Part shown: piece by piece, positions 2,218 through 17,039 of the stretch
Layout: each line of letters starts with the position of its first letter
Numbering within the stretch: the stretch's first letter is position 1
Assembly: GCA_945869675.1 (NCBI GenBank)
Contig: CAMBPS010000001.1
Coordinates: 23,576-87,575, forward strand
Length of the DNA: 64,000 nt
Source: Prosthecobacter debontii
GTDB taxonomy: Bacteria; Verrucomicrobiota; Verrucomicrobiia; Verrucomicrobiales; Verrucomicrobiaceae
Direction of reading: 5' to 3'
Program-made: the position numbers and the translations under genes
Notes under the pieces: generated by a model
The model's input: only the letters and a program-made list of their open reading frames with translations
Told to the model about the DNA's origin: nothing
Databases searched by the model: none

Positions 2218-2397
2218 CCAATTCTCGAGTCATTTTCAGAAGGCGAATTGGTGGATTTGCCGTGAATACGCCTCTTCCAGGCTAGTTTCAGGCATTGTGG
2301 TTCATTCACAATGAGAGGCTTGAGTTGCTATTTAGGCTGATTAAGAGAGCTAAAAAGTGAGAGCCACCCTTTGCGCGGACAAAAACAGAAATCGTTC

Positions 2398-2425
2398 TTG
2401 CATTCCGGCTCCAAGTTTCTACTCT
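2398..2425 (+). promoter_or_regulatory. Putative sigma70-type promoter of the respiratory cluster
   Basis: TTGCAT (2398-2403), 16 nt, TACTCT (2420-2425), 55 nt upstream of the actE ATG; weak consensus match. Confidence 0.35.
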
Positions 2426-2431
2426 AATTCT

Positions 2432-2453
2432 GCTTGTGAAATTTTTCACAAGC
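2432..2453. promoter_or_regulatory. Perfect palindromic operator, Rex-box / CRP-box-like
   Basis: GCTTGTGAAATTTTTCACAAGC has 10-bp arms. It contains TTGTGAA-N4-TTCACAA (Rex consensus) and TGTGA-N6-TCACA (CRP consensus), 27 nt before the actE ATG. Confidence 0.7.
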
Positions 2454-2480
2454 TCCTGAACGGCCTTCCGCCGACACGCC

Positions 2481-3149
2481 ATGTTGAAATACTTCTTCCT
2501 CAGTTACGTCTTCGTTGCGGCCATCGTAGTGGCCGCTTTCGGCACACGCGGCAGTAAGTCCGAATTGCCGCCTATTGAGATCTTCCAAGACATGGATCAT
2601 CAGGCTAAAATCAAATACCAGGCTCACAGCGACTTTTTTGCCGATGGTCTGGGCGGTCGCCAACTGGTTAAGCATACCGTGCCAATGGGATTCGAAGTGC
2701 CTGCAAAGCCTGTTTCTTCGCCAGATGCAGCGCCTCCAGACTACGGTTTCAGCAACGGGCTTGATTACTACAGCACGGGCAAGCTCGGCGATTTTTATGG
2801 TGACGGGTTGCCAGAGCAAATCGTCGCGGACAAAGCACTCCTCCAACGTGGCGAACGTCAATATGGTATTTACTGTGGCGTCTGCCACGGTGCTTCTGGT
2901 AACGGAAAGGGAGTCACCTCGAAATATGGCATTTTAGCGGCCTTCAATTTCCATCAGACGGGCTCGATGGATCCTGCCAATGCAGGCGCATACCGCGCAG
3001 ACGGAGCGATTTTTGATGTCATCTCGAATGGTAAGGGCCTCATGGGTTCTTATGGTGGTAACCTCACTGTTCGTGACCGCTGGGCCATTGTGGCCTACAT
3101 CCGCGCCCTTCAGGTAGCGGTTAAAGAAGGAAACGTTTCTGTCCAGTAA
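2481..3149 (+). CDS. actE: Alternative complex III monoheme cytochrome c subunit ActE
   Basis: DMDHQAKIKYQ matches the ActE DMxxQxKxxxQ motif; single CGVCH heme motif; distal Met in GLMGSYG; RWAIVAYIRALQ tail; directly followed by actF. Confidence 0.85.
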   Translation: MLKYFFLSYVFVAAIVVAAFGTRGSKSELPPIEIFQDMDHQAKIKYQAHSDFFADGLGGRQLVKHTVPMGFEVPAKPVSSPDAAPPDYGFSNGLDYYSTGKLGDFYGDGLPEQIVADKALLQRGERQYGIYCGVCHGASGNGKGVTSKYGILAAFNFHQTGSMDPANAGAYRADGAIFDVISNGKGLMGSYGGNLTVRDRWAIVAYIRALQVAVKEGNVSVQ

Positions 3150-3167
3150 CACGCTCGCATTTTCGGC

Positions 3168-4469
3168 ATGAGTCACCACGTCACATTCAACGATCTCCCT
3201 CAAGGCGGCGAGAAGTTTGAGCCAGCCAAAGGCAGCAAGCTCATCAATGGTCTTGGGGCCCTAGGCGCTCTCGGGCTTTTGGTTTCGATCTACCTTTTTA
3301 GCACAAATACGGATAGCTTTGCCTACTCGTGGCTTTTTGCTTTCTTTTTCTCATTCACGCTTGTTTGCGGAGGTTGTTTCTGGATTTTGCTGCACAATGC
3401 CTCAAATTCTGGTTGGGGTATTTCTCTTCGTCGTCTTTGGGAGCAACTTGCTAACATGGCGCTGCCGCTGGCCATTCTTGGTATACCTCTTTTGATCCCG
3501 GCCGTTCAAAAGCCTTTGTATGAGTGGATGGGACACCATCGTGATGCGGCTCACCACATGAGCGAGCATGTTTCCACGGTTAAAGAAGCACTACATCATG
3601 CTTCAGAGACCAATCCTCATCTGCACATTCTCGTTCAGAAGTTTGGGTATCTTAATATCACCGCTTGGTATGTTCGCTACTTTGTTTACTTTGGCATCCT
3701 AGCTCTTATTGCTAGCGTTCTGCGCGGAAAATCGGTCAAGCAGGATCTCGATGGAGATATCAAGCATACCATCAAAGCGCGGGCTTTCTGCTGTACTTGG
3801 ATGCTTTTCTTTGCCCTGACGGTGACCTTCGCGGCTGTCGACTGGCTAATGTCTCTGGATTACTCATGGTTCTCAACCATGTGGGGTGTTTACATTTTTG
3901 CTGGCTGTGCTTGGTCCTCCATGGCGTTGACCATTCTTTTGGTGACTTGGCTGCGTGGGATGGGTTACCTGCAAAAAGTGGTTTCTGAGGAGCATTACCA
4001 CATCATGGGCAAGTTCGTTTTGGCCTTTACCATCTTCTGGGCTTACATCGCCTTCAGCCAGTACTTCCTCATCTGGTATGCTAATATCACCGAAGAGACA
4101 CGGTTTTACCTGACTCGAAACACGGAAGGCTGGCGTGATGTTTCTATCTTTATTGTGGTGGGACATTTCATTGCACCCTTTGTGCTTCTCCTATCCCAGC
4201 CGCGCAAGAAAAAGCCAGCTGTGATCAGCGGGATCTGTCTTTGGATTCTTTTCATGCACATCGTCGATATCTATTGGAATGTGATTCCTGAGCGTGGACC
4301 TTCCCTCGGTCAGGGGGTTGTTATTCCTGGTGCATGGGTGGGTGATATCGTCGCTCTTTGCACCTTTGTGGGGCTCTTGGGTTTCCTTTTCCTTCGAAGC
4401 TTGGCACGTTACAGCCTGTATCCTTGCCGCGATCCTCGTCTGCTTGAGTCCGCTAATGTTGTTAACTAA
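3168..4469 (+). CDS. actF: Alternative complex III membrane subunit ActF (NrfD-like paralog)
   Basis: About 10 TM helices; motifs DWLMSLDYSWFSTMWG, FTIFWAYIAFSQYFLIWYANITEET and YWNVIP typical of ActF; follows actE. Confidence 0.88.
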   Translation: MSHHVTFNDLPQGGEKFEPAKGSKLINGLGALGALGLLVSIYLFSTNTDSFAYSWLFAFFFSFTLVCGGCFWILLHNASNSGWGISLRRLWEQLANMALPLAILGIPLLIPAVQKPLYEWMGHHRDAAHHMSEHVSTVKEALHHASETNPHLHILVQKFGYLNITAWYVRYFVYFGILALIASVLRGKSVKQDLDGDIKHTIKARAFCCTWMLFFALTVTFAAVDWLMSLDYSWFSTMWGVYIFAGCAWSSMALTILLVTWLRGMGYLQKVVSEEHYHIMGKFVLAFTIFWAYIAFSQYFLIWYANITEETRFYLTRNTEGWRDVSIFIVVGHFIAPFVLLLSQPRKKKPAVISGICLWILFMHIVDIYWNVIPERGPSLGQGVVIPGAWVGDIVALCTFVGLLGFLFLRSLARYSLYPCRDPRLLESANVVN

Positions 4470-4477
4470 TTGTTGTC

Positions 4478-4855
4478 ATGTCTCCTCCTGCGATTCATTC
4501 TAAATCTGGTTCCAGTTTCTTCTGGGTGCTGGCAGCATTTGCTAGCTTTGCAGTTCTCTTTTTGATCATCCAGACTCTGGCCGCCAAGCCTGGTGCTGAG
4601 GACCCTCGGGCGCCTGAGCGGATCGCTAATTCGGCTGAAATCATGAAAGCCCAATCTGAGATCATCGCTAACATGGGCTTGAATGACGCCACCAAAAAGA
4701 CAGTTATTTTTGACAAAACCTTGGCTGTTCTCAATTCCCGCAAGCCATCTATCAGCACGCAAGTGGTGCCTGGCTCGCCAACTCAAATGAAGCAGGCTGC
4801 GGCACCAGCGACTCCCGCTGCTTCGCCAGCAACGGTAACACCTGCAATCAAATAA
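4478..4855 (+). CDS. Single-pass membrane protein of unknown function (positional ActG-like candidate)
   Basis: One N-terminal hydrophobic helix, a helical soluble part and an Ala/Pro tail; tightly packed between actF and the ccoN-like gene. Confidence 0.65.
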   Translation: MSPPAIHSKSGSSFFWVLAAFASFAVLFLIIQTLAAKPGAEDPRAPERIANSAEIMKAQSEIIANMGLNDATKKTVIFDKTLAVLNSRKPSISTQVVPGSPTQMKQAAAPATPAASPATVTPAIK

Positions 4856-4872
4856 CGGCCGATTTTTTCCAG

Positions 4873-6360
4873 ATGCAGACGACCTCCTCATCCGCAGATA
4901 CAGACGTTCAGGCTGACAATCTTCGCCGCGCGGCGATTGACAAGTCAGTTAAGGGCCCTGTGCTGTTCCTCTTCCTCAACGGCGCTTTTTGGTTGATGGC
5001 TTCCACCATTCTTGGTGTGCTGGCTGCCTTGAAGCTCTTTGCTCCGTCTTTTTTGGGTGACTGCCCTGTTCTTCAATACGGTCGCTTACAGCCAACCCAC
5101 TTAAATGCCCTTGTTTACGGTTGGGGTGTGCAAGCTGGTCTGGGCGTCATGCTTTGGATTATGGCTCGTCGTTCGGGGCAAGAATTGAAGAGCGGTAAAA
5201 GCGTTCTCTATGTCGCTGGTATCTTTTGGAACATAGCGGTGACACTTGGATTACTGAGTATTCTTTTTGGCGGTAGCACGTCCATCGAGTGGTTGGAAAT
5301 GCCAAAGTGGGTCTGGCCGATTATGCTTGCCGCTTTCCTTTGCTTTGCGTGGCCTATGACAACTATGTTTGCCCGTGCTTTTCGTCCCGAAGGTTTCATG
5401 GTTAGCACATGGTACATCTTGGGTGCTTGCTTTTGGTTCCCATGGATCTTCGTTACAGCGAATGTCGCCCTCCATTGCCTTCCTGGATTGGGTGCCTTCG
5501 GTGCAGGTGTTAATGCATGGTATGTTCACGCTGTGATCATGCTGTTTTTTGCTCCTGTGGCTATTGGTTCCGCTTATTACTTTATCCCCAAAATCACTGG
5601 TCAGCCTATTGCAAGTTCACAGCTCGCTCAAATGGGATTCTGGGCGTTGGCCTGCCTCGGTGGATGGACAGGAATGCAACATTACATGGGTGGACCTCTT
5701 CCTGCCTGGATGCCAGCTATTGGTTCTTTAGCTTCCGTTTTATTGCTCGTCCCGGTGGGTGTTGTGGGTCTGAATCATCACCTTACAACTCTGGGGAAGC
5801 ATCATCTCGTTGCCTCTAGTCCAACTCTTCGATTCACCTTTTTGGGAGCACTGTTCTACCCGATTTCTGGAGTGATTCTTGCTCTAATTTCCAATTTCAC
5901 TACAGGGCCGACCCTGCAATTCACCAATGCTTGGTATGGTTTCCAAATTGTGGCTGTTTATGGATTTTTCAGCATGAGTGTTTTTGGTGCCATCTATTAT
6001 ATTGTTCCTCGCTTAACAGGTTGTGAATGGCTATCAGTTCGCTTAATCCGCAACCACTTCTGGTTCTCGACCTATGGTATCGCCACTGTCGTAATCACCA
6101 GCCTTGTGGCAGGTGTGCAGCAGGGTGGGGATTTGAATCATCCTGAAATGTGGGATCAAGATTTCTATCAGTTGGTCATGAATACTCAGCCTTATATCAT
6201 CGCTCGTGCGGTTGCTTGGGGATTGATTACATGGTCCAATATTTGGTTTTTAGTTCATCTCATGCTTATGGTGGCCGGTCTCGGTCGTCGCAGTTCGGCA
6301 CCTACGCTTCTGCACCATGGTCATGATGAATCTTCTCTTCCGCACGGAGCACACGCATGA
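4873..6360 (+). CDS. cbb3-type oxidase subunit I-like (CcoN-like) protein with degenerate active site
   Basis: Colinear with CcoN motifs: YGRLQPTHLN, STSIEWLEMP, WYVHAV, YYFIPK, GPLPAW, SPTLRF, IYYIVPRL, NHFW. HH is replaced by QH and GHVH by GFQI. Confidence 0.85.
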   Translation: MQTTSSSADTDVQADNLRRAAIDKSVKGPVLFLFLNGAFWLMASTILGVLAALKLFAPSFLGDCPVLQYGRLQPTHLNALVYGWGVQAGLGVMLWIMARRSGQELKSGKSVLYVAGIFWNIAVTLGLLSILFGGSTSIEWLEMPKWVWPIMLAAFLCFAWPMTTMFARAFRPEGFMVSTWYILGACFWFPWIFVTANVALHCLPGLGAFGAGVNAWYVHAVIMLFFAPVAIGSAYYFIPKITGQPIASSQLAQMGFWALACLGGWTGMQHYMGGPLPAWMPAIGSLASVLLLVPVGVVGLNHHLTTLGKHHLVASSPTLRFTFLGALFYPISGVILALISNFTTGPTLQFTNAWYGFQIVAVYGFFSMSVFGAIYYIVPRLTGCEWLSVRLIRNHFWFSTYGIATVVITSLVAGVQQGGDLNHPEMWDQDFYQLVMNTQPYIIARAVAWGLITWSNIWFLVHLMLMVAGLGRRSSAPTLLHHGHDESSLPHGAHA

Positions 6361-7025
6361 GCAACTTCCGCACGTTCATTCTCGCACTTACTGCTAGCTT
6401 CGGTTTTCCGTGGCTTTGCCTCATCATCATTCCAGCCATCAAGTATCAGGCTTTGACGCCAGTTGCTTATGATAAAGACAAAGACGGTGTCGAGGGGTTT
6501 TATCCGCCTGCGCCTATCAATCGTCAGGGTCAATTGACCTATGCCCGTGAAGGATGTGCTCAGTGTCACACGCAGATGATACGCCCAACGCAGCTCTCTC
6601 TTGACGGCTGGCACAAAGGATGGGGTCAGGATCAAGAGGCTCGTCCCGCAGCTCCAGTGCGTTCCAATACTCTCCTGGATTATCTTGGTGAGCCATACGC
6701 TTTCTTGGGTGTTCAACGTTTGGGCCCAGATTTAACGAATTACGGCTGGCGCGCTCCATCACGTCAGGAAATGCACGTCATGCTCTATGCTCCACGCCAG
6801 CGTCATGATTGGTCGAATATGCCAGCATTCAAGAATCTCTATGAAGTGCGTCTTGCCCAAGGTCCTAAGTCTGAACTGGCCCTCAAGCTTTCCAAGCCCT
6901 TCGCTCCTGAAGTCGGCTATGAAGTGGTCCCGACTCCAGAAGCTGAGGCTTTGGTTGATTATTTGCTGTCACTTAAGAAAGATAATCCCATTCCAGGCAT
7001 CACTGCTGCCGCTGTAAAGAAGTAA
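6357..7025 (+). CDS. ccoO: cbb3-type oxidase subunit II-like monoheme cytochrome c (CcoO-like)
   Basis: YAREGCAQCHTQMIRP, GVQRLGPDL and SNMPAF match the CcoO signature; N-terminal TM helix; ATGA overlap with the ccoN-like gene. Confidence 0.85.
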   Translation: MSNFRTFILALTASFGFPWLCLIIIPAIKYQALTPVAYDKDKDGVEGFYPPAPINRQGQLTYAREGCAQCHTQMIRPTQLSLDGWHKGWGQDQEARPAAPVRSNTLLDYLGEPYAFLGVQRLGPDLTNYGWRAPSRQEMHVMLYAPRQRHDWSNMPAFKNLYEVRLAQGPKSELALKLSKPFAPEVGYEVVPTPEAEALVDYLLSLKKDNPIPGITAAAVKK

Positions 7026-7037
7026 CGCCCACCATTC

Positions 7038-7760
7038 ATGAGCGCACCCTCCAATAATTTTCAACCCGATAGCACAGATCTAGATCGCCTTCACTCTGCA
7101 GTGACGCGTGAGAAGGAAGACCTCCAGGCTGGTCGTGAACCTGCATCCATGCTTGTCATGTTCCTTGGCATGCTGGTTGCTGTGATTGCCGGTGGACAGT
7201 TCAGCGCTGTGGGAGGCAAGCAAGAATTCGGAACAAGCACAGCTTTCAATTATGAGTCAGGTGCCGATCCTCGTCCCGGTGGAGGCGCTGGTGCTTTAGC
7301 CATGGACCCATTTCAAACCGCCATGAAAAAAGGTGCAGGTGGTTACGCCGTTTGTGGTGGTTGCCATCAGGGGAGTGGTCTAGGACTTCCCGGTCAATTT
7401 CCACCTCTGGCTGGCTCTGAGTGGGTTTTAGGCGGAACTGAGCGTCTGATTCGCGTCGTCCAACACGGTCTAGTTGGTGCGATCACAGTGAAGGGACAAG
7501 GTTACAATACTCCTGGTGGTATGCAGGGTTTTGGAGCTGCCATGTCTGCAGGTGATTTCGCTAATGTGCTGACGTTCATTCGTAATAGTTGGGGCAATGA
7601 AGCTCCGATGATCACCAAGGAAATGGTCGAGAAAGTTCGCTCCACTGAGAAGCGTGGCACTCAATGGACCATGCCTGAACTTGAAACTTTCGCCAAAGTT
7701 AATGTTGAGGGCCTGATTCCCGCTGGACCTGGTGCCACAGCAGCGCCTACTGCTAAGTGA
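7038..7760 (+). CDS. Membrane-anchored monoheme class I cytochrome c
   Basis: One TM helix then YAVCGGCHQGSGLGLPGQFPPLAGSEWV, distal Met in GGMQGF, and VLTFIRNSWGN. Confidence 0.88.
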   Translation: MSAPSNNFQPDSTDLDRLHSAVTREKEDLQAGREPASMLVMFLGMLVAVIAGGQFSAVGGKQEFGTSTAFNYESGADPRPGGGAGALAMDPFQTAMKKGAGGYAVCGGCHQGSGLGLPGQFPPLAGSEWVLGGTERLIRVVQHGLVGAITVKGQGYNTPGGMQGFGAAMSAGDFANVLTFIRNSWGNEAPMITKEMVEKVRSTEKRGTQWTMPELETFAKVNVEGLIPAGPGATAAPTAK

Positions 7761-8581
7761 TTGGAGATATCATGATTTATATGACGCAGTTCATTTCTAG
7801 CAAGGTGCCATTAGTGGCCTTAGCTATGATTGCACTGCACACTATCACTGCCTGCGGAAAAATACCTGAAGCGTCTCGTGCTAATCTATTGCCAGCGATC
7901 AATATTGCTCAAAAATTAAGTCTCCAAGGCAAAGTAATTCTTTCAGGAGGCAAGCCAGCCTCGATGGGGCAGGTGATTGACGTTGGACAAAATCCTCTTT
8001 GCGCAGGCCATAGCGCTCTCACCAATCCAACCTGGAGAGTTTCTGAAGATGGCGGATTGGAGGATGTTGTCATCAGTGTTCGTCAAACGGCGCGATCAAT
8101 TAGCACTGCCAATAGTTCCCCCCTGATCAATCAAAGAAATTGTGAATTCCAGCCATTTATGACTGTAGCGCAGCCGGGTCAGACAGTGCGACTTCAGAAC
8201 AGCGACATGACCTTCCACAACATTCGTATTGTTCAGCATCAATTAGGCACTATCGCCGCAGGTGAAAATCTGGTTAATTTGGCGCAACCTGCTCGTGGTG
8301 ATGAAAATTTGCATAGCTTTGACCAACCGGGAATTTATCGCTTAGAATGTGATGTTCATCGTTGGATGCGAGCATGGGTCTATGTCCATGATGGTGTTCA
8401 TGCCGTGGCAACCTCCAAAGATGGAACGTATGAACTGAATCATGCACTGATTGATGGCGTTTACGAGGTATCAGCGTGGCATCCAATGTTTTCACAGAAG
8501 TTAACCCAAACTGTTGCCATTCGGAATGGACAGGGCAGGGCTGATTTCTCCTTTGATCTTAAAAATTCATTCAATCTTTGA
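7757..8581 (+). CDS. Putative lipoprotein with cupredoxin-like domain and C-terminal beta-sandwich; true start may be a downstream ATG
   Basis: Lipobox-like ITA-C (C33); NQRNCEFQP; His154 (TFHNI) and C198-D-V-H201-R-W-M204. Confidence 0.75.
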   Translation: MIGDIMIYMTQFISSKVPLVALAMIALHTITACGKIPEASRANLLPAINIAQKLSLQGKVILSGGKPASMGQVIDVGQNPLCAGHSALTNPTWRVSEDGGLEDVVISVRQTARSISTANSSPLINQRNCEFQPFMTVAQPGQTVRLQNSDMTFHNIRIVQHQLGTIAAGENLVNLAQPARGDENLHSFDQPGIYRLECDVHRWMRAWVYVHDGVHAVATSKDGTYELNHALIDGVYEVSAWHPMFSQKLTQTVAIRNGQGRADFSFDLKNSFNL

Positions 8582-8648
8582 TCTGCTAAACTTAGACAAT
8601 TCGTAGCCTTTTGGCTTTTACTTTTTTCACCTTTACTTCCCACAAGCT

Positions 8649-10598
8649 ATGAGCGCTGCTACAATTTCCAACGACCATACCAACGATCACGGCCATGACC
8701 ATCATGAACTGAGTTTCCTCAAAAAGTACATCTGGTCGACCGATCATAAAGTCATCGGCATTCAGTATGCGGTGAGTGGGTTACTCTTCCTGCTGTTTGG
8801 ATTCTTCCTGATGATGATGATGCGTTGGAGCATCGCCTATCCAGGTCAACCTATTCCGGGATTCGGTTTCGTGACTAGCATTCCTGTGATTGGCGATTTG
8901 TTTCAGGAAATGATTGGACGCTGGGCGCCTGGTGGCGTTGTCAATGGTGAGCTATACAATATGCTAGGTGCCATGCACGGAACAATCATGGTCTTTCTCG
9001 GGATTGTGCCTCTCGGTTTTGCTGGATTCGTGAACTTTGTCATGCCTCTCCAAATTGGCACGATTGATATGGCCTTTCCTCGTCTGAACATGTGGAGTTA
9101 TTGGCTCTTCTTCGTTAGTGGTGTCATGATGTTTGCGAGTTTCTTCTTGGGAACGGGGTCAGTGCAGACTGGGTGGACGATGTATTCGCCTTTGGCATCA
9201 ACAACAGGTTTAGCTGTGACCAATGTATGGATGCATGGTCATACTTGGTGGTTGCTTGCCATGGTGTTTAATATTTCCGCATCACTTTTGGGATCAGTGA
9301 ACGTCATCACGACGATTATCAATCTGCGTGCCAAAGGTTTGACTTGGATGCGCATGCCGTTCTTCTGCTGGGCCATGTTTATCGTTTCTTTCCTGCTACT
9401 TTTGGCTTTCCCGCCTCTTGAGGTAGCTGCGCTGCTTCAGCTTATGGACCGTGTGTTTGGCGCTAGCTTCTTCTTGCCGACAGGTCTGATGGAAGGTGGG
9501 CAACATCTGGACATCGCTGGTGGTGGCAGCCCGCTGCTTTATCAGCACTTGTTCTGGTTCTTAGCTCACCCAGAGGTGTACGTCTTGATCCTGCCTGCCT
9601 TCGCGATTCTGACTGAAGTGATCCCTGCTAATACTCGTCGTCCTCTTTGGGGTTACAAAGCCATGGTGTATGCTGCTTTGACCTTGGGTTTCCTCAGTTT
9701 CCTTGTTTGGGCTCATCACATGTATCTGACGGGCATGGGCACCATGATGTCCACCTACTTCCAGATCACCACGGTTCTGATCTCCGTTCCATCCGTCATC
9801 CTACTCACGGGTCTCATGATTTCTCTCTGGGGTGGTTCCATTCGGTTTACGCCTCAGATGCTTTTCGCTTCGGCTTTCTTGCCGATGTTTGGTATCGGTG
9901 GTCTTACGGGCTTGCCTTTGGCTTTTACCTTCATCGACCTTGCTCTACATGACACCTATTACGTCATTGGACACTTCCATTACGTGGTTGCTCCTGGGAC
10001 AATCTTTGGTCTCTTCGCAGGTGTTTACCACTGGTATCCAAAAGCCACAGGGCGAATCATGAATGATTTTCTGGGCAAACTTCACTTCTGGCCATCGCTG
10101 CTGGGAATGAATATGATCTTCGCGCCGATGTTTATTCAAGGTATGGGGGGGTTCCATCGCCGCTGGTATGATGGTGGTAAATACTTCGAGCAGACTTCCA
10201 GTGCTTCCAACTGGTTTACTGAACTTAATTCCGGTTTTTTTAGTCTGTTCGGCATGGACGTGCCAAACAATCTTCTTGGGCTGAATGTCCTGATGTCAGT
10301 TGGTGCCTTCGTTCTCGCTCTGGGGCAGGTTCCTTTCATTCTCAATTTCTTCCTCAGTATTAAAGGTGGCAAAAAAGTCGAGAACGACAATCCATGGGCA
10401 GCAACGACTCTTGAGTGGGCGGCTCCGACACCTCCTCCGCATGGTAACTTTGACTTTGAGCCCATCGTCGTTCGTGGCCCTTATGAATATAGTGTTCCTG
10501 GTATGGATCAGGATTTCTTCCCGCAGTGGGAATCAGAGCCAGGTAAGCGCGCGGAGCCATCGGCTGCCCCAGCACCAGCCATTGTTGCTCATCATTGA
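8649..10598 (+). CDS. ctaD: Cytochrome c oxidase subunit I, A-family (A1-type HPEVY)
   Basis: Heme/Cu ligands all present (GAMHG, LAHPEVY, WAHHM, GHFHY); D-channel D140 (DMAFPRLN); RR pair in GFHRRW. Confidence 0.97.
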   Translation: MSAATISNDHTNDHGHDHHELSFLKKYIWSTDHKVIGIQYAVSGLLFLLFGFFLMMMMRWSIAYPGQPIPGFGFVTSIPVIGDLFQEMIGRWAPGGVVNGELYNMLGAMHGTIMVFLGIVPLGFAGFVNFVMPLQIGTIDMAFPRLNMWSYWLFFVSGVMMFASFFLGTGSVQTGWTMYSPLASTTGLAVTNVWMHGHTWWLLAMVFNISASLLGSVNVITTIINLRAKGLTWMRMPFFCWAMFIVSFLLLLAFPPLEVAALLQLMDRVFGASFFLPTGLMEGGQHLDIAGGGSPLLYQHLFWFLAHPEVYVLILPAFAILTEVIPANTRRPLWGYKAMVYAALTLGFLSFLVWAHHMYLTGMGTMMSTYFQITTVLISVPSVILLTGLMISLWGGSIRFTPQMLFASAFLPMFGIGGLTGLPLAFTFIDLALHDTYYVIGHFHYVVAPGTIFGLFAGVYHWYPKATGRIMNDFLGKLHFWPSLLGMNMIFAPMFIQGMGGFHRRWYDGGKYFEQTSSASNWFTELNSGFFSLFGMDVPNNLLGLNVLMSVGAFVLALGQVPFILNFFLSIKGGKKVENDNPWAATTLEWAAPTPPPHGNFDFEPIVVRGPYEYSVPGMDQDFFPQWESEPGKRAEPSAAPAPAIVAHH

Positions 10599-10639
10599 GA
10601 TTTAAACCCAGAGAACTGAGCTAACCGTCACTTTTCCAC

Positions 10640-12031
10640 ATGGACATTCCTTACACAGTCTCCGCCCGCCCAGATACGGGCTTGTATAACGCCAAAGTCG
10701 GCATCTGGCTTTTCCTCGCTTCTGAGGTCATGCTCTTCGGGGGGCTTTTCTCTTCCTACATCTTCTTGCGTGTTGGTGCGGACTATCCGTGGCCAGTTCA
10801 TGAGTTGAATGTGACCCTTGGTTTTATCAATACATTGGTTCTTATTGGTTCTTCCGTCACTGTGTTGCTTGCATGGGCTTCTATCAAACTCCGTAAATTT
10901 GGAGCCTACAAAGTTTACATGGCCATCACCATCCTTTGTGCCATGACCTTCATGGTCATCAAAAGCTTTGAGTATAAAGCCAAATTTGAGCATTACTCGG
11001 TTACTCTAACGGATGGCACGATCCTAACGGGTCACTTGCCGAATGGTTTTGAGATTGAATTCGGCGATGTTAAGGAGCTCAGCCTGACGATCTCAGGTAA
11101 GACATCTGCTGTCGACGCCGACCCTGTAGGTTACGTGCTCCCCTACCTCAAAGGAACCGCCCCGAAGTTCAAAACACAGGCGGGTGTTGAGATTGACTTG
11201 AACAAAGAAAGCTTCGCAGTCTTGAAAGCCGAAGTGCTTGCAGCTGCCAAAGCTAAAGCCACCAATTCTAAAGAGCTTCCGTCAACCACGATCAAGTTAG
11301 TTGCGGCATCTCCGATGACATTCTCGGTTCCAATGTCCAAGTTCTTAGCCCGCCCAGCGCTAGACGCCAAATCGTTTACCTTTCGTGATGGCACTTCAGT
11401 CGAGGGTAAAATTATCAATGATAAGATGACTCTTGAAGTCGATGGACTGGATGTCCGCGGCACACCTGACAAAGAGAAGTCTTTGGCGTTTAACGAGCAT
11501 TATCTCGGAACTGCCTGGAAGAATGCTTTCATTCATCAGAGAGATGAAGCCATCGCTGTATTCAAAAAGGAATTCGATGACGGTAAAGGCGGCACCTCTC
11601 GTGATCCTAAAAAGAGTGCAACTCAGCAAAAGAAGCTCTTTTACGTTCACATTCACTCAGCCACTCCTGAAGCCCATACCGAAGAAGGAGGCGCGCACAA
11701 AACTGAGGCTCATGCACCAGTTGAAGAGCATGGCTCGGCTCACGCGGGTCATCATCCTGAAGTGAAGCTGGAGCGAAAAGATGTTCAGTTCTTCTCTAAC
11801 TTCACACCAAAGCTGAATAGCTACTACGCCATCTATTTCACTCTCACTGGGCTGCATGGGCTACATGTGATCGCAGGTGCTTTAGTATTGGCTTACTTCT
11901 TGGTTTTTGATGGTCGCCGTCTGCGTGAAGACCCTGAGCACATGGCCAACCGTGTCGAAGTCGGTGGCCTCTTCTGGCACTTTGTAGATTTGGTCTGGAT
12001 CTTCCTGTTCCCACTCTTGTATCTCTTATAA
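10640..12031 (+). CDS. ctaE: Cytochrome c oxidase subunit III with a large soluble insertion
   Basis: [36 protein letters not shown] and [19 protein letters not shown], separated by a ~270-aa hydrophilic insert. Confidence 0.92.
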
Positions 12032-12055
12032 CCGCACCCTTTACCGTCCCTTATT

Positions 12056-12400
12056 ATGGCTGATAGCCCTGAAGAAATTTACAAATCCATCCGCAAGATT
12101 AAGCTGATCGGCTTGGTGCTTGCTGTTTTCACCGTGCTCACCGTTGGACTTTCTTATGTAGAGCTACCTACCCATAGCTTGAATATGATGGTCGGCATGC
12201 TCCTAGCAACCATCAAGGCAGCCTTGGTCGCTTTGATTTTCATGCATTTAAATCACGAAAAAGCGTTGGTTTATAAAATCCTCGCTTTCACGGTTGCTTT
12301 CGCTGTCGCTTTATTTGTTCTTTTTTACCTCAGTAACTCTGAAGGCCTGATTGATGAGGGCTTTGAGAATTCTACTGCTATCATCGAGTCTCAGGAGTAG
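12056..12400 (+). CDS. ctaF: Cytochrome c oxidase subunit IV (CtaF-like)
   Basis: Three TM helices with LTVLTV and KAALVALIFMHL motifs; follows subunit III. Confidence 0.85.
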   Translation: MADSPEEIYKSIRKIKLIGLVLAVFTVLTVGLSYVELPTHSLNMMVGMLLATIKAALVALIFMHLNHEKALVYKILAFTVAFAVALFVLFYLSNSEGLIDEGFENSTAIIESQE

Positions 12401-12429
12401 TCATCACTCAGTATCATCATCCATCCACT

Positions 12430-12636
12430 ATGTCACTGAAACACTTCCACTACGTTTTTCTGTTTTTTGCAGTTCTCTGCGATGGCGGTTTCTGGTTGTG
12501 GACGCGTCTTCAGCCAAGTGTCTCTGCTGAACTCGGGATAGGCATTTTGGGCTCGATCGCTGGCTGGACTAGTCTTGTCCTCGTTGCTTACAGCGTTTGG
12601 TATCTTTCGAAAAAATCGAAAACGATCATCGTCTGA
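12430..12636 (+). CDS. Small two-TM membrane protein of unknown function in the oxidase operon
   Basis: 68 aa with two hydrophobic helices, MSLKHFHYVF N-terminus and Lys-rich C-terminus; co-oriented within the operon. Confidence 0.6.
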   Translation: MSLKHFHYVFLFFAVLCDGGFWLWTRLQPSVSAELGIGILGSIAGWTSLVLVAYSVWYLSKKSKTIIV

Positions 12637-12672
12637 GCCATTTCCCATCTTCAATCGTTCTCTCATTAATCT

Positions 12673-12846
12673 ATGCTGACTCTCGCCTGCGCTACTTGCA
12701 AAGCTGATCCAAACAGTGTCATCGCTCAGGCGCAAGACATTGCTGTTTTGGTGATGCTGGCGTTTCTGGTTTTAGGCATGAGTTTTGTGGGATTGATCGT
12801 CTGGAACTTTGTCCGCAAACAGCAGAAGGCTGCCGTAACCTTTTAA
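12673..12846 (+). CDS. 57-aa CxxC plus single-TM protein (absent from the ORF track)
   Basis: Translated by hand: MLTLACATCKADPNSVIAQAQDIAVLVMLAFLVLGMSFVGLIVWNFVRKQQKAAVTF*. It fills the gap before ctaC. Confidence 0.7.
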   Translation: MLTLACATCKADPNSVIAQAQDIAVLVMLAFLVLGMSFVGLIVWNFVRKQQKAAVTF

Positions 12847-12878
12847 CATTTTATCCCCCGCCCCCTCCTTATTTACCT

Positions 12879-13670
12879 ATGAGTATTTCAGACATCAACG
12901 TTTGGCTTGGTATGACGCAGAACGCTTCAGAGCATGGAGGTCTTGTGGACCACATGCTTGGTTTTGTTCACTGGTTCATGTTGGTTCTTTTCATTGGATG
13001 GTCCACCTTCTTAGCAATCGCATTTTATAAGTTTCGGGCCACCAAGAATGCCAAAGCTGATTACCATGGCGTTCGCGGTCATGCGACGACACACATCGAA
13101 ATCGGTGTTTGTATTGTGGAAGCCATTCTGCTTCTCGGTTTCGCATTCCCGCTATGGCACCATCAAGCCGATGAGTTCCCAACTGGCTCAGATACTGTGA
13201 AGATTCGCGCCATGGGGGAGAAGTTTCTCTGGAATTTCCAGTATTCGGGTAACGATAAGATGCTTAGCACCTGGGATCCACGCGCCATTTCTCAATCCAA
13301 TCAAACGGGTCGCGAACTGACTGATCCAAATGGTAAGGATGATTTTGTAAATCCGGGAACCATGAAGCTGCCCTTGGGGCGTCCCGTCATCATTGATGTT
13401 ACCAGTAAAGACGTAATTCACAACTTGGCTCTCGTTCCGATGCGCGCCGCTCAAGATGCCTGCCCTGGCGTGAAAGCGCACATGTGGTTTAAGCCAGTGA
13501 AGACGGGTAGTTGGGACATCATTTGTGGTCAACTTTGTGGCCCTGGTCATGCCCAGATGAAAGCCATGCTTGAAGTGGTTGAAACTGCTGAGTTTGACGA
13601 ATGGTCTAAGGAACAATCTAACAGTGCTGCGGTGAAGAGTGCAGCACCCGCTCCTCTGGCAGTTCGCTAA
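12879..13670 (+). CDS. ctaC: Cytochrome c oxidase subunit II (CuA), without fused cytochrome c
   Basis: Two TM helices; EKFLWNFQY aromatic loop; DVIH and CGQLCGPGHAQM CuA ligands. Confidence 0.95.
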   Translation: MSISDINVWLGMTQNASEHGGLVDHMLGFVHWFMLVLFIGWSTFLAIAFYKFRATKNAKADYHGVRGHATTHIEIGVCIVEAILLLGFAFPLWHHQADEFPTGSDTVKIRAMGEKFLWNFQYSGNDKMLSTWDPRAISQSNQTGRELTDPNGKDDFVNPGTMKLPLGRPVIIDVTSKDVIHNLALVPMRAAQDACPGVKAHMWFKPVKTGSWDIICGQLCGPGHAQMKAMLEVVETAEFDEWSKEQSNSAAVKSAAPAPLAVR

Positions 13671-13706
13671 TGCCATTTGCGGGCGTTTTTGATCCGCTAA
13701 ATTTGA

Positions 13707-13735
13707 CAAAAGTGCGGACTTAGGTCCGCATTTTT
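13707..13735 (+). terminator. Rho-independent terminator-like hairpin after ctaC
   Basis: AAAAG-TGCGGAC-TTAG-GTCCGCA-TTTTT. Confidence 0.65.
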
Positions 13736-13754
13736 CGTTTCCTCATTACCCACC

Positions 13755-14843
13755 ATGCAGATTTTCCATTGGTTTTCTCGTTTTACCCTTCTTGTGGGTC
13801 TTGTGCTCATTTGGTGGGGCGCTGCGGTGACGACCGAAGATGTCGGGTTGGCTGTTCCTGATTGGCCGCTTGCTTTTGGAAAAATCAATCCTGAGGGCTG
13901 GATGAAGGTGCCAGCTTTGTTTCTCGAACATGGTCACCGCTGGATTGCTACGACCATTGGTTTTTTGGTTTTGGGCATGTATTTCTGGCAGTTTTCGCGA
14001 TGCAAACCGAGATTGATCGAAGCTGCTGGTATTATCCTTATTGGGTGCGGCTATTTGGTTTTGATTTTCAAAGGCTTCCTCGGTCTGGCTATGGTCATCG
14101 TCGTGATGAGTTTATTATGGTTGATCATGAATTGGATTGGTCAGCGCTGGAGTCTGCTGCGTGGGCTGACGACCTTGGCTCTTTTTTTGGTGATCATTCA
14201 GGCTTCTCTCGGTGGTCTTCGGGTTTTGAAAATGTCTGATCCGTATGGCATTAGTCACGGCACTCTAGGGCAGCTGTTTTTTTGTTTGCTGGTTTTCATT
14301 TCCTTTGCCTCGTCTAGAACGTGGCATTCAGAATCGTTGGTGATTCAGAAAAATTGCCAGTCTGCGCGAGCTTGGAGTTTGATTCTCTTTTTGGCTGTCT
14401 TCGGTCAACTCATCATTGGGGCGACGTTGAGGCATACGCAGCGCATGCATTTGGCCGCGAACGATATTTTGACCACGAAGGGCCAGCTTTTCCCGCCAAT
14501 GGATCCTGCGGATGTGTTTGTGCTGCACCTGCACAAGTATTGGGGGTTCTCGGTCGCCTTACTTGTTCTCGTAGTGGCTTGGAAATCTCGTTCTTGGCTG
14601 GGCCGGGTGCCGCGTTTGCGGTGGATTTCTCCTGCACTCATGATTATGCCGATTAACCAAGTCGTTTTGGGGATTTATGTGGTTCTGACCGGCAAAAGCT
14701 TCTGGGTCACCAATCTGCATGTATTGAATGGCCTTGGTTTGCTGGTGCTGACTTTTTTACTGGCCGTCAGCGTCTGGGCTTCGACCGCCGGACTTGGATT
14801 GAATGAGCAGACAAAGGCTGACAAACCCCTGTCCCCAACCTAG
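13755..14843 (+). CDS. ctaA: Heme A synthase (COX15/CtaA)
   Basis: VPDWP, EHGHR, SHGTLGQ, HLHK and NLHV conserved His motifs; adjacent to ctaB. Confidence 0.88.
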   Translation: MQIFHWFSRFTLLVGLVLIWWGAAVTTEDVGLAVPDWPLAFGKINPEGWMKVPALFLEHGHRWIATTIGFLVLGMYFWQFSRCKPRLIEAAGIILIGCGYLVLIFKGFLGLAMVIVVMSLLWLIMNWIGQRWSLLRGLTTLALFLVIIQASLGGLRVLKMSDPYGISHGTLGQLFFCLLVFISFASSRTWHSESLVIQKNCQSARAWSLILFLAVFGQLIIGATLRHTQRMHLAANDILTTKGQLFPPMDPADVFVLHLHKYWGFSVALLVLVVAWKSRSWLGRVPRLRWISPALMIMPINQVVLGIYVVLTGKSFWVTNLHVLNGLGLLVLTFLLAVSVWASTAGLGLNEQTKADKPLSPT

Positions 14844-14852
14844 TTTCACCTC

Positions 14853-15821
14853 ATGACCAAAGATGATTCTACTGCGTCGGCTTCCGCTCTACCATTGCCA
14901 CCAGCTGTGAGTGGAGAGCCCGTGGCCTTTACCCTGAATGATTTGCTGACGCTGACGAAGTTCCGGCTCAGCGCTTTGGTAATCGTGACGACTTTTGTGG
15001 CGTTCTGGTTGAGGGCTGGGACACAAATGAATTTCTGGCTGCTCCTGCACACCATCATTGGTAGTACCTTAGCAGCCTTTGGTGCAGCTGTGTTTAATCA
15101 GCTGATGGAGATCGAGCCAGACTCTCGTATGAGCCGAACGGCAGATCGCCCCCTGCCTGCTGGTCGCATCAGTCCTTCGTTGGCTTTTGGGTTGGGATGG
15201 CTGCTTAGCGCCATGGGGTTGATTCATTTGGTGCATCGAGTCAATATGGAGGCTGCTGCTTTGACGGCGCTGACACTAGCGACTTATCTCTTCATCTACA
15301 CGCCTCTGAAAAAGCAGTCCGCTGTGAATACCTTGGTCGGAGCTGTTTCGGGTGCTTTACCGCCATTGATTGGTTGGGCTGGTGCTGCCGGTTTCTCGGA
15401 AAAAACAGAAGCATACTTTCGCTGGAGTCTTCTCTGGGAGCCTGGTGCTATTTATCTATTCATGCTTTTGTTCCTCTGGCAGTTACCGCATTTCCTGGCG
15501 ATCAACTGGATGTATCGAGATGAGTATCGCCGAGGTGGATTTGTCATGCTGGCTAATGATGATGAACTAGGTGCTCGCACTTCACGCCATGCTCTGGCCT
15601 GGGCTGTCGCTATGCTGTTGCTGATGTTTTATCCTGTTGCCTTTGGGCTGGTGAAGCTGTGGCTATTTCTTCCTGTGGCACTGCTTTTAAATGTGTGGCT
15701 TTGTCAGCGGGCCTTAGTGTTTCAAAAGAATCCTGAACGGGCGACTGCGCGTCGGCTCTTTTTTGGAACGCTGATTTATCTTCCAGTTATTTTATTGATC
15801 ACGGCCTTGGCCTGGAAGTGA
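14853..15821 (+). CDS. ctaB: Protoheme IX farnesyltransferase (heme O synthase)
   Basis: NQLMEIEPDSRMSRTADRPLPAGR, YTPLKK, GALPPLIGW, WQLPHF. Confidence 0.96.
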   Translation: MTKDDSTASASALPLPPAVSGEPVAFTLNDLLTLTKFRLSALVIVTTFVAFWLRAGTQMNFWLLLHTIIGSTLAAFGAAVFNQLMEIEPDSRMSRTADRPLPAGRISPSLAFGLGWLLSAMGLIHLVHRVNMEAAALTALTLATYLFIYTPLKKQSAVNTLVGAVSGALPPLIGWAGAAGFSEKTEAYFRWSLLWEPGAIYLFMLLFLWQLPHFLAINWMYRDEYRRGGFVMLANDDELGARTSRHALAWAVAMLLLMFYPVAFGLVKLWLFLPVALLLNVWLCQRALVFQKNPERATARRLFFGTLIYLPVILLITALAWK

Positions 15822-15855
15822 TCGTCGATAGATTGAACCAACTCCTTTTTGACCT

Positions 15856-16608
15856 ATGTCTACAGATCCAATTCCAGAGGCTCCGCGCCGCATCAATCCT
15901 CTGACCTTATGGGTGCCGATTATCTTCATTGTTCTCGGGGTGGTAGTTTTCTACAATTATCTCATCTACACCTCCATGGAGGCTAAGAAGAACAAAGAAA
16001 CCCTGACGGATGGTCAAGGCACCACACGCAGTTCCGAGCGTCCGGCTTACCTGGGGCGATTGGAGAAGGATTTGGAGCTTGTTGAGCGCAGCGGTAAGAC
16101 CGTTCATTTGGCCGATTTGCGCGGAAAGATCATTATTGCTTCCTGGGTCTTTACGCGTTGCCCGCGTGGTTGTGCTGGGGTGATCGCCAAATTAAAAAAG
16201 CTATACGCTGAACTGGGCGACAATCCGAACGTGCAGTTTATCTCCTTTACGCTGGACCCGGACGATACGCCCGAGATGATGAAAGCCTGGGCCAGCGGTG
16301 TGGGTATCAAGGATACTGACAACTGGTGGTTTCTCAATGGTCCGAAGGATGTGGTGCGCAAATACATGACCTTTTCTTTTCAATTTCGTCCGGTGCAGGA
16401 TCTCCCGGAGGCGGACCGCCTGACACCTGATGATAAATACATCCATGATTTACGCGTTGCACTAGTCGATCATGCTGGGCATGTGCGTGGGCTGCATGAC
16501 ATTATGAATGCGGATCCCCAGTTCCAAGAATACTGGGATAAACAAATCCGCACCGATCTGAACTACCTCCTCGAAGAACAAAAAAAAGCCAAAGACAAGA
16601 CACCATGA
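15856..16608 (+). CDS. sco: SCO/SenC family copper chaperone
   Basis: N-terminal TM helix, FTRCPRGC (CxxxC), SFTLDPDDT and conserved His in YIHD. Confidence 0.92.
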   Translation: MSTDPIPEAPRRINPLTLWVPIIFIVLGVVVFYNYLIYTSMEAKKNKETLTDGQGTTRSSERPAYLGRLEKDLELVERSGKTVHLADLRGKIIIASWVFTRCPRGCAGVIAKLKKLYAELGDNPNVQFISFTLDPDDTPEMMKAWASGVGIKDTDNWWFLNGPKDVVRKYMTFSFQFRPVQDLPEADRLTPDDKYIHDLRVALVDHAGHVRGLHDIMNADPQFQEYWDKQIRTDLNYLLEEQKKAKDKTP

Positions 16609-17039
16609 CAGTCACAGAACTTCCCTCTCTCTACACCATCTTTAACGCCTGTGCTCTGCTGCACATCATTCTTGGTCTGACGATGATCAAGATGGGGCAC
16701 AAGAAGGCCCATATTATCAGTATGGTGATCGCTTTGCTTTTTTCGACAGCTTTTCTGGGTTGTTATCTCTATTACCACTATTATGCAGGTCATGTCAGGT
16801 TTGCGGGACAGGGGTGGACGCGTCCGGTTTACTTCACCATTCTCTTTAGCCATATCCCTTTGGCTGTTTTGAGTCTGCCTCTGATCATCATGACTGTGCT
16901 GCCAGCCTTGCGTCAGCGCTTTGACAAACATAAGCATATGGCCAAGTGGACCGTGCCGGTTTGGCTTTACGTCAGTGTCACCGGTATCATCATTTATATG
17001 ATGTGTTACGTCTGGTACGGTCCACCGATTCGGGGTTAA
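16605..17039 (+). CDS. DUF420 family membrane protein (CtaM/YozB-like oxidase assembly factor)
   Basis: Four TM helices; HKKAHIISM, FLGCYLYYH, ILFSHIPLA, HKHMAKWTVPVWLYVSVTG. Confidence 0.9.
   Translation: MTVTELPSLYTIFNACALLHIILGLTMIKMGHKKAHIISMVIALLFSTAFLGCYLYYHYYAGHVRFAGQGWTRPVYFTILFSHIPLAVLSLPLIIMTVLPALRQRFDKHKHMAKWTVPVWLYVSVTGIIIYMMCYVWYGPPIRG

Follow-up and report, generated by a model that had tools for sequence, protein, structure and literature searches.

A CcoN homologue lacking most of its metal ligands, conserved between alternative complex III and aa3 oxidase genes in Verrucomicrobiaceae

What becomes of the core subunit of a terminal oxidase once the residues that hold its metals are lost, and why is it then maintained next to the genes of two other respiratory complexes? 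The question is raised by a gene cluster in a 64-kb window (64,000 nucleotides, the whole stretch of DNA analyzed here) from the genome of a freshwater Verrucomicrobiaceae bacterium; coordinates are positions in this window unless another locus is named. The cluster (2481-17039) consists of 17 tightly packed genes on the plus strand, flanked by tex (4-2217) and rplU (17112-). It contains genes for two subunits of alternative complex III (ACIII), a trio of genes related to those of cbb3-type (C-family) oxidases, a cupredoxin-like lipoprotein gene, and an A-family aa3 oxidase operon. A preliminary description of this DNA had listed 17 tightly packed, co-oriented genes, three c-type haem sites and an oxidase subunit II without fused cytochrome c, and had taken the CcoN-like protein to be non-catalytic. 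These points are borne out, respectively, by the gap sizes (a small open reading frame (ORF), orf57, being the 17th gene), by a single CXXCH motif in each of ActE (CGVCH), the CcoO-like protein (CAQCH) and the cytochrome encoded at 7038 (CGGCH), by the CuA motif and absence of CXXCH in CoxII, and by the mapping of ligands described below (two of seven positions firmly kept). Intergenic gaps range from -4 to 67 nt between actE and coxI and reach at most 84 nt in the cluster; the ccoN-like and ccoO-like genes overlap by 4 nt. Scans within the cluster gave no convincing intrinsic terminator (counts were the same as in shuffled sequence) and identified no promoter, the counts being again indistinguishable from those of shuffled sequence.

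The fate of the metal sites was determined by mapping the ligands of Pseudomonas stutzeri CcoN onto the CcoN-like protein, using HMMER alignments to 3mk7_A and 9g6b_A. Seven positions were considered: the CuB ligands H207, H257 and H258, the cross-linked Tyr Y251, the haem b3 ligand H345 and the haem b ligands H60 and H347. Two are kept, H60 (H76 in the window protein) and H207 (H219). Four are lost: Y251, H257, H345 and H347 correspond to G263, Q269, F357 and I359. The last one, H258, corresponds to H270 in the window and to K in most relatives, so that the family has G, Q, F, I or K at five of the seven positions. Proton-path and active-site residues differ too: S240 has become A252, H243 has become G255, and the active-site Glu E323 has become I335. 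Compared with P. stutzeri cbb3 (3MK7), the protein is therefore without binuclear centre, haem b3 ligand, cross-linked Tyr and active-site Glu, and has one haem b ligand at most. The fold is shared. The AlphaFold (AF2) model built from 79 sequences (predicted local distance difference test, pLDDT, 90; predicted template modelling score, pTM, 0.90) superposes on 3mk7_A with template modelling (TM) scores of 0.85/0.90 and a root-mean-square deviation of 2.3 Å at 23% identity, and its top Foldseek matches in the PDB are all CcoN (TM 0.84-0.90). Maturation genes are also missing: ccoS (fixS), which lies immediately 5' of ccoN in three relatives described below (L081, L088 and L089), is absent from the window and from the 80 loci of our synteny scan; no P-type ATPase gene follows the trio of the window, whereas L081 has one, and no ccoGHIS genes are present. 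The protein is thus a CcoN by its 12-helix fold and by descent, but it fails as a C-family oxidase on both ligands and maturation genes, which supports a putative non-catalytic role.

Loss of the metal sites is not accompanied by relaxed selection. The ratio of non-synonymous to synonymous substitution rates (dN/dS), computed against the closest relatives L001 and L004, is 0.018 for the ccoN-like gene, against 0.017 for actF and 0.014 for both coxI and coxII. It is about 0.04 for the ccoO-like gene, 0.08-0.09 for the 7038 cytochrome, about 0.10 for the cupredoxin and 0.14-0.17 for orf125, the small ORF between actF and the ccoN-like gene. The CcoN-like protein is thus under very strong purifying selection, on a par with the live subunits. 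Freshwater metatranscriptome contigs with 92-99% identity cover the ccoN-like and ccoO-like genes, the cytochrome, the cupredoxin, coxI, coxIII and coxII, and cross the junctions actF/orf125, ccoN-like/ccoO-like, coxI/coxIII and orf57/coxII. Since the gene is transcribed and its dN/dS resembles that of CoxI and ActF, we conclude that it is not decaying; and since its metal sites are lost and yet it is conserved as tightly as real enzymes, it was probably repurposed. A stretch of 140 nt inside coxI (9562-9703), not a multiple of three, is skipped by one metatranscriptome contig (run X25). This is probably due to cross-mapping at the conserved HPEVY region, because nearby loose ends read like CoxI of other taxa.

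The origin of the trio was traced through its relatives. When 1.84 billion cluster representatives were searched exhaustively, 316 clusters had E < 1e-30; only 4 of about 130 full-length best matches have all seven ligand positions intact. The named matches of a profile search, intact and degenerate together, belong only to Verrucomicrobiota (subdivision 3, Verrucomicrobiales, Methylacidiphilales and Chthoniobacterales). Loss is graded: patterns such as HHYQHHH, HHSQHHH, HHAQYHH and HNAQRYH are intermediate, while in 62 of 180 degenerate relatives all six His ligand positions are without a His, even when 2 residues to either side are allowed for, and many clusters of distant degenerate members are below 50% identity. 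In the planctomycete Telmatocola sphagniphila (L081) an intact CcoN is found in the order actA-F, small ORF, fixS, ccoN, ccoO, cytochrome c, P-type ATPase. A Methylacidiphilales locus (L089) has the same core order, with fixS and again an intact CcoN, and L088, whose CcoN is near-intact (HHSQHHH), retains fixS. An Opitutales copy downstream of ACIII (L084) has lost CuB and kept its haem His. Degenerate copies follow ACIII, with no aa3 after them, in L083 (Verrucomicrobiota) and L085; in L082 (Verrucomicrobiales) and L087 (Chthoniobacterales) the aa3 operon known from the window comes after the degenerate copy. The ActE, ActF, CcoO-like protein and cytochrome of the window all have orthologues in L089 and L081; the CcoO-like protein and the cytochrome match the CcoO and cytochrome c genes of the intact clusters at 35-39% identity. 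In L087, which comes from a metagenome-assembled genome, the 220-nt gap before the degenerate ccoN contains a 16-aa stretch (9825-9872) that is 68% identical to the FixS motif IFDQEEP... and looks like a relic of ccoS.

Because intact clusters are orthologous, fixS is lost or left as a relic and intermediate patterns exist, the trio is a former three-subunit cbb3 oxidase that was already attached to ACIII. The ancestor would have had the order actABCDEF-orfX-ccoS-ccoN-ccoO-cytochrome c, that is, an ACIII joined to a real three-subunit cbb3. In many Verrucomicrobiota, CcoN would then have lost the CuB ligands and the cross-linked Tyr first, the haem b3 ligand next, and finally one or both haem b ligands, with ccoS lost too, while CcoO and the third-subunit cytochrome c would have retained their c-haems throughout. 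A neighbour-joining tree shows the intermediate forms and suggests several loss events, with about six ligand-loss changes, but it is crude and subject to long-branch effects, and we do not rely on this count. We hold this descriptive and evolutionary account with high confidence.

The association of the trio with its neighbours was examined in a synteny scan using one genome per species, in which the best 80 of 312 loci encoding a relative of the CcoN-like protein were analyzed, all of them from Verrucomicrobiaceae (Prosthecobacter, Brevifollis). As far as each contig reaches, the order actE-actF-orf-ccoN-like-ccoO-like-cytochrome c-(cupredoxin)-coxI-coxIII-coxIV-orf-coxII-ctaA is conserved in 80/80 loci. 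The preliminary description had proposed such a survey as a check of its reading; conservation is what the survey shows, and the order recurs in L082 and L087. The 5' side of the cluster varies. In a first group of 36 of the 80 loci (70-77% identity to the CcoN-like protein of the window), actABCD lies directly 5' of actE, with actD abutting actE. In a second group, made of the window and 22 loci among L001-L030 that reach beyond actE (75-97% identity), there is no actABCD upstream, and the gene 5' of actE in the window is tex. ActE and ActF are homologous to solved ACIII subunits (6f0k_E, 6f0k_F), so the earlier recognition of ACIII genes in the cluster stands for actEF; it had missed that the rest of the actABCDEF set is not in the window, where tblastn with ActA-D found none and Pfam showed the large downstream ORFs to be AddAB-like nuclease/helicase and other unrelated genes, with no ActA-D. 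Two isolates of the second group show where these genes may go: in Brevifollis gellanilyticus actABCD stands alone on another contig, and in a Prosthecobacter isolate it is likewise at a separate locus. For this reason we propose that the ancestral operon was cut between actD and actE. In the sublineage of the window, actEF would have stayed with the ex-cbb3 and aa3 genes while actABCD moved away. Because ActE and ActF remained with this half at the split, they may form the docking side of ACIII. The closest relative of the window, L001 (97% identity in the CcoN-like protein), carries between tex and actE an ORF of 1602 aa (2411-7219) with N-terminal sigma-70 regions 2 and 4, DUF6923 and InlB-B-repeat-like domains; the spacer is only 263 nt in the window.

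If CcoN has lost its metals, its two partners have not. The CcoO-like protein keeps the C..CH.QMIRP, GPDL and MP motifs, conserved in 84 loci, together with the N-terminal anchor and the distal Met, and scores 52 bits against PF02433 (cut-off 29.6); it is a monohaem subunit of the CcoO/FixO type and shares the haem site of P. stutzeri CcoO. In place of the dihaem CcoP of P. stutzeri, the third subunit is monohaem and c552-like. Its CxxCHQ motif and Met are conserved in 82 loci, and it is 35-36% identical to the third gene product of L081 and L089. In the PDB its haem domain matches Cu-nitrite reductase, in the cytochrome c domain (5e-19), and Thermus c552 (3e-16). This likeness, to the Ralstonia pickettii reductase and to Thermus thermophilus c552 (E 1e-16 to 1e-19), concerns the haem domain; the version encoded at 7038 differs in being membrane-anchored and the third gene product of a cbb3-derived module. 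In all degenerate clusters examined, the CcoO-like protein and the cytochrome retain one CXXCH each. The CcoO-like proteins of L083 (11431-12417) and L087 (11506-12462) are 318-328 aa long, against 210-222 aa elsewhere, owing to about 100 extra aa inserted after the haem motif and ahead of the C-terminal part.

The oxidase that follows appears complete. CoxI has all its ligands and the motifs HPEVY (the A1-type Glu motif), WAHHMY and GHFHYV; in CoxII (263 aa) the CuA motif (H...CGQLCGPGHAQM) is intact. With CtaA and CtaB, the cluster is thus predicted to encode a complete A1-type aa3 oxidase. The DUF420 protein at its end we take to be a member of the CtaM family of aa3 assembly factors. CoxIII (463 aa) carries a hydrophilic insertion of about 270 aa (roughly residues 118-385), rich in Lys, Glu and His, that separates its two membrane halves. 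With orthologues of 423 aa (L082) and 291 aa (L087), the insert differs in size between orders.

What, then, might the trio do? The b-haem and CuB sites are gone, the c-haem sites are kept, constraint is strict and the module never leaves ACIII. On these grounds we propose that the CcoN-like protein would serve as a 12-helix membrane platform, holding the haems of the CcoO-like protein and of the c552-like cytochrome beside the exit of ACIII. Menaquinol would be oxidized at ActC, and electrons would pass through the iron-sulfur clusters of ActB and the haems of ActA to the haem of ActE, then to the CcoO-like and c552-like haems on the platform, possibly through the cupredoxin where it is present, and finally to CuA of CoxII, haem a and the a3-CuB site, where O2 would be reduced. 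A relay role is reasonable since haem c sites are kept at a conserved position between ACIII and a CoxII without cytochrome c. Electrons are donated to CuA by Thermus c552 and to type-1 copper by the cytochrome c tethered to Cu-nitrite reductase; delivery to CuA therefore fits a cytochrome that resembles c552-type donors and a CoxII not fused to any cytochrome c. We consider this scaffolded relay somewhat better than an even proposition; what is inferred within it is that the proteins associate physically in one complex, that the haems follow one another in this order and that the CcoN-like protein acts as a scaffold.

Several points weigh against this proposal. The link to aa3 is not universal, because L083 and L085 have ACIII and the trio without aa3 downstream. 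The suggestion of the preliminary description that the trio wires ACIII to aa3 is accordingly retained for the relay and loosened for the oxidase: by the sequences compared, the trio would belong to ACIII in the first place and link it to aa3 only secondarily. The presence of actABCD elsewhere in the genome of the window is itself inferred, from two isolate relatives. The RNA contigs are assembled, come from close relatives (92-99%) and may include DNA carry-over. A dN/dS as low as that of a catalytic subunit is not obviously needed by a passive scaffold, and hints at some further role beyond that of a platform. Finally, PMC8552683 reports that electron transfer to aa3 in Flavobacterium johnsoniae does not require ActE, which implies that ACIII can feed an oxidase without extra relays.

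Another account of the same genes limits the trio to ACIII: it would be a purely accessory exit or stabilizing module, passing electrons to any acceptor in the periplasm or to any oxidase, with the aa3 operon encoding a separate enzyme kept nearby for co-regulation only. The trio follows ACIII in every context examined, including the two loci just mentioned where actABCDEF is present and aa3 is not, and it was with the trio that actEF remained at the split; but aa3 lies directly 3' of the trio in three separate lineages (Verrucomicrobiaceae, L082 and L087), no cytochrome c is fused to the adjoining CoxII, and up to coxI the gaps do not exceed 67 nt, with no convincing terminator. We regard this account as possible, though rather unlikely. 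The strict conservation could also mean that the CcoN-like protein has a non-redox job of its own, as a redox-dead, conformationally coupled subunit: a proton or ion pathway, a gating element or a regulator, acting for ACIII or for an obligate megacomplex of ACIII, trio and aa3. Such a terminal-oxidase core turned coupling subunit would explain conservation as strict as in live catalytic subunits; the 12-helix fold is complete, and polar residues including D23, R99, E142, N301, H303, E385 and H395 are invariant in the family. However, the proton-path and active-site residues of cbb3 are now non-polar (S240A, H243G, Y251G, E323I), distant degenerate members are very divergent, and there is no redox centre to drive pumping. 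We therefore hold it to be improbable.

Little remains for the two readings that take the trio at either extreme. That the CcoN-like protein is still an O2 or NO reductase with non-canonical ligands might be argued from H76 and H219 and from H303, H310, H395 and H462, which are invariant within Verrucomicrobiaceae; it is hardly credible in a family that has replaced five of seven ligand positions, has lost the active-site Glu, the Tyr and ccoS, and in about a third of its degenerate members (the 62 of 180 above) has no His left near any of these positions. That the pseudo-cbb3 genes are non-functional relics heading for loss would agree with the missing ligands and ccoS and with the strong divergence of distant lineages, but they have dN/dS of 0.018-0.036, frames intact in 80/80 species and in several orders, transcripts and fully conserved c-haem sites, and we give this reading next to no credence. 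Pseudogene decay and chance adjacency were accordingly both rejected on selection, transcription and synteny (80/80 loci in the same order).

The scaffolded relay can be compared with known systems. A passage of PMC8498564, citing Refojo et al. 2010, notes ACIII beside C-type oxidase genes in verrucomicrobial methanotrophs, Opitutaceae and planctomycetes. The window shares with such clusters the order actABCDEF, small ORF, ccoN, ccoO, monohaem cytochrome c; these have a CcoN with seven ligands preceded by ccoS, both of which the window has lost, and the window adds an aa3 operon downstream and has its actABCD detached. Supercomplexes of ACIII with aa3 or caa3 are established (PMC5928083; PMC8498564, citing Sun 2018), and super-operons of ACIII and oxidase genes are known from Rhodothermus marinus (PMC5928083), from F. 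johnsoniae (PDB 6BTM) and, as the "ACIII-A2 caa3 superoperon", from Acidobacteria (PMC8407424). In these as in the window, ACIII genes precede an A-family oxidase; there the two are thought to be coupled without soluble carrier, and the oxidase comes straight after actF (or actG), often with its own cytochrome c domain, whereas in the window and its relatives the three ex-cbb3 genes, in some loci followed by a cupredoxin gene, separate the ACIII genes from an oxidase whose CoxII lacks cytochrome c. For a CcoN docked on a quinol:cytochrome c oxidoreductase there is precedent in the supercomplexes of complex III and cbb3 (8SMR, 6XKW, 9G83). While the proximity of ACIII and an oxidase operon is thus already well known, the degenerate CcoN is the part we did not find described: a full-text literature search that did not extend to Refojo 2010 or to the "unknown group" of the haem-copper oxidase tree of Muntyan 2015 (via PMC5492636) gave no description of a strictly conserved, ligand-less CcoN in most Verrucomicrobiota, of a trio interposed between ACIII and aa3 in three lineages, or of an operon split between actD and actE.

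The proposed conversion of an enzyme into an architectural part has a parallel in another respiratory complex. The peptidase-like core proteins of cytochrome bc1 are catalytically dead paralogues kept as structural subunits. Both would be former enzymes maintained by selection for an architectural role in a respiratory complex; in the window the dead part is a terminal-oxidase core lying beside a live oxidase of another family. The graded series (CuB, then haem b3, then haem b) would document how a terminal oxidase can end up as a structural or electron-relay component in a different complex, and the operon split bears on the questions of electron exit from ACIII and of the roles of ActE and ActF. 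There is also a practical consequence for genome annotation. All database names encountered that assign a function to these proteins read "cbb3-type cytochrome c oxidase subunit I", the remainder being "hypothetical protein"; as the CcoN-like protein is mislabelled as an oxidase, the oxygen-reducing repertoire of Verrucomicrobiota is overstated. Genome studies scoring high-affinity cbb3 or microaerobic respiration in this phylum may count a protein unable to reduce O2, and live and dead copies can be told apart by inspecting the seven ligand positions. Cultured carriers of the cluster exist (Prosthecobacter, Brevifollis, Phragmitibacter), among them Prosthecobacter fluviatilis with a contiguous operon and B. 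gellanilyticus and P. debontii with a split one, so that the model is open to direct test.

Table 1. Features of the respiratory gene cluster and its upstream spacer (positions in the 64-kb window)
Feature	Coordinates	Strand	Evidence and remarks
tex-actE spacer	2218..2480	.	263 nt; proposed cut site of ancestral actABCDEF; presumed promoter location
ActE, monohaem cytochrome c subunit of ACIII	2481..3149	+	6f0k_E E 5e-25; 6lod_E 2e-20; PF13442; CGVCH at aa 132
ActF, NrfD/PsrC-like 10-helix ACIII subunit	3168..4469	+	6f0k_F 1e-52; 8k9e_F 1e-40; 6btm_F 1e-30; full length
orf125, small, one predicted membrane helix	4478..4855	+	conserved slot between actF and ccoN
CcoN-like, cbb3 subunit-I homologue without binuclear centre or second haem-b ligand	4873..6360	+	PF00115 E 1e-47
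CcoO-like, monohaem cbb3 subunit-II homologue	6357..7025	+	PF02433; 8smr_F 4e-11; 3mk7_B 7e-10
c552-like membrane-anchored monohaem cytochrome c	7038..7760	+	PDB matches; CGGCH
Cupredoxin-like lipoprotein with C-terminal beta domain, lineage-specific accessory	7757..8581	+	weak PF00127, PF13620; 5fc9_A E 0.0055
CoxI, A1-type haem-copper oxidase	8649..10598	+	PF00115 E 1e-123; TIGR02891 E 2e-159
CoxIII	10640..12031	+	PF00510 and NCBIfam matches, confined to the two ends
CoxIV, prokaryotic subunit IV	12056..12400	+	PF03626 E 2e-11
orf68, small membrane protein between coxIV and coxII	12430..12636	+	found in loci reaching here, L082 and L087
orf57, second small membrane ORF, 57 aa, 17th gene	12673..12846	+	same-slot counterparts in L082 (77 aa) and L087 (86 aa)
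CoxII, CuA site, no fused cytochrome c	12879..13670	+	PF00116
CtaA, haem A synthase	13755..14843	+	PF02628
CtaB, haem O synthase	14853..15821	+	PF01040 E 3e-49
Sco1/SenC, CuA copper chaperone	15856..16608	+	PF02630
DUF420 membrane protein	16605..17039	+	PF04238 E 3e-36

Two further members of the cluster deserve mention. The product of the 7757 gene had been described beforehand as a type-1-copper-like lipoprotein and as part of the electron wire. The former is confirmed as a pattern, with a lipobox (ITAC|G) and an H...C-x2-H-x2-M arrangement conserved in 54 loci, while similarity to known families is low (18.2 bits for Pfam Copper-bind, whose cut-off is 21.2; PDB 5fc9, E 0.0055) and the single-sequence AlphaFold model, with a pLDDT of 33, is unusable for the fold. 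The latter has to be toned down, since the cupredoxin is dispensable and no core element of a wire: the gene is absent from about 20 of the 80 loci and, in other orders, from L082 and L087, and it evolves faster (dN/dS about 0.10). It may be an optional extra carrier or a copper-handling protein. Additional Cys/His motifs (NPlC..H, VHdGvH and AWHP) are conserved in the 54 loci and could correspond to a second metal site or a copper-chaperone role. In L087 the slot of the cupredoxin is occupied by a gene for a flavin adenine dinucleotide (FAD)/pyridine-nucleotide-disulfide oxidoreductase (13420-14415). As for orf125, a small ORF (98-190 aa) is always found between actF and ccoN, in all loci. 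The protein has no match in Pfam, NCBIfam or the PDB, and it resembles ActG by its position and its one predicted helix. Well downstream of the cluster, the window also contains a plus-strand ORF of 2169 aa (53557-60066).

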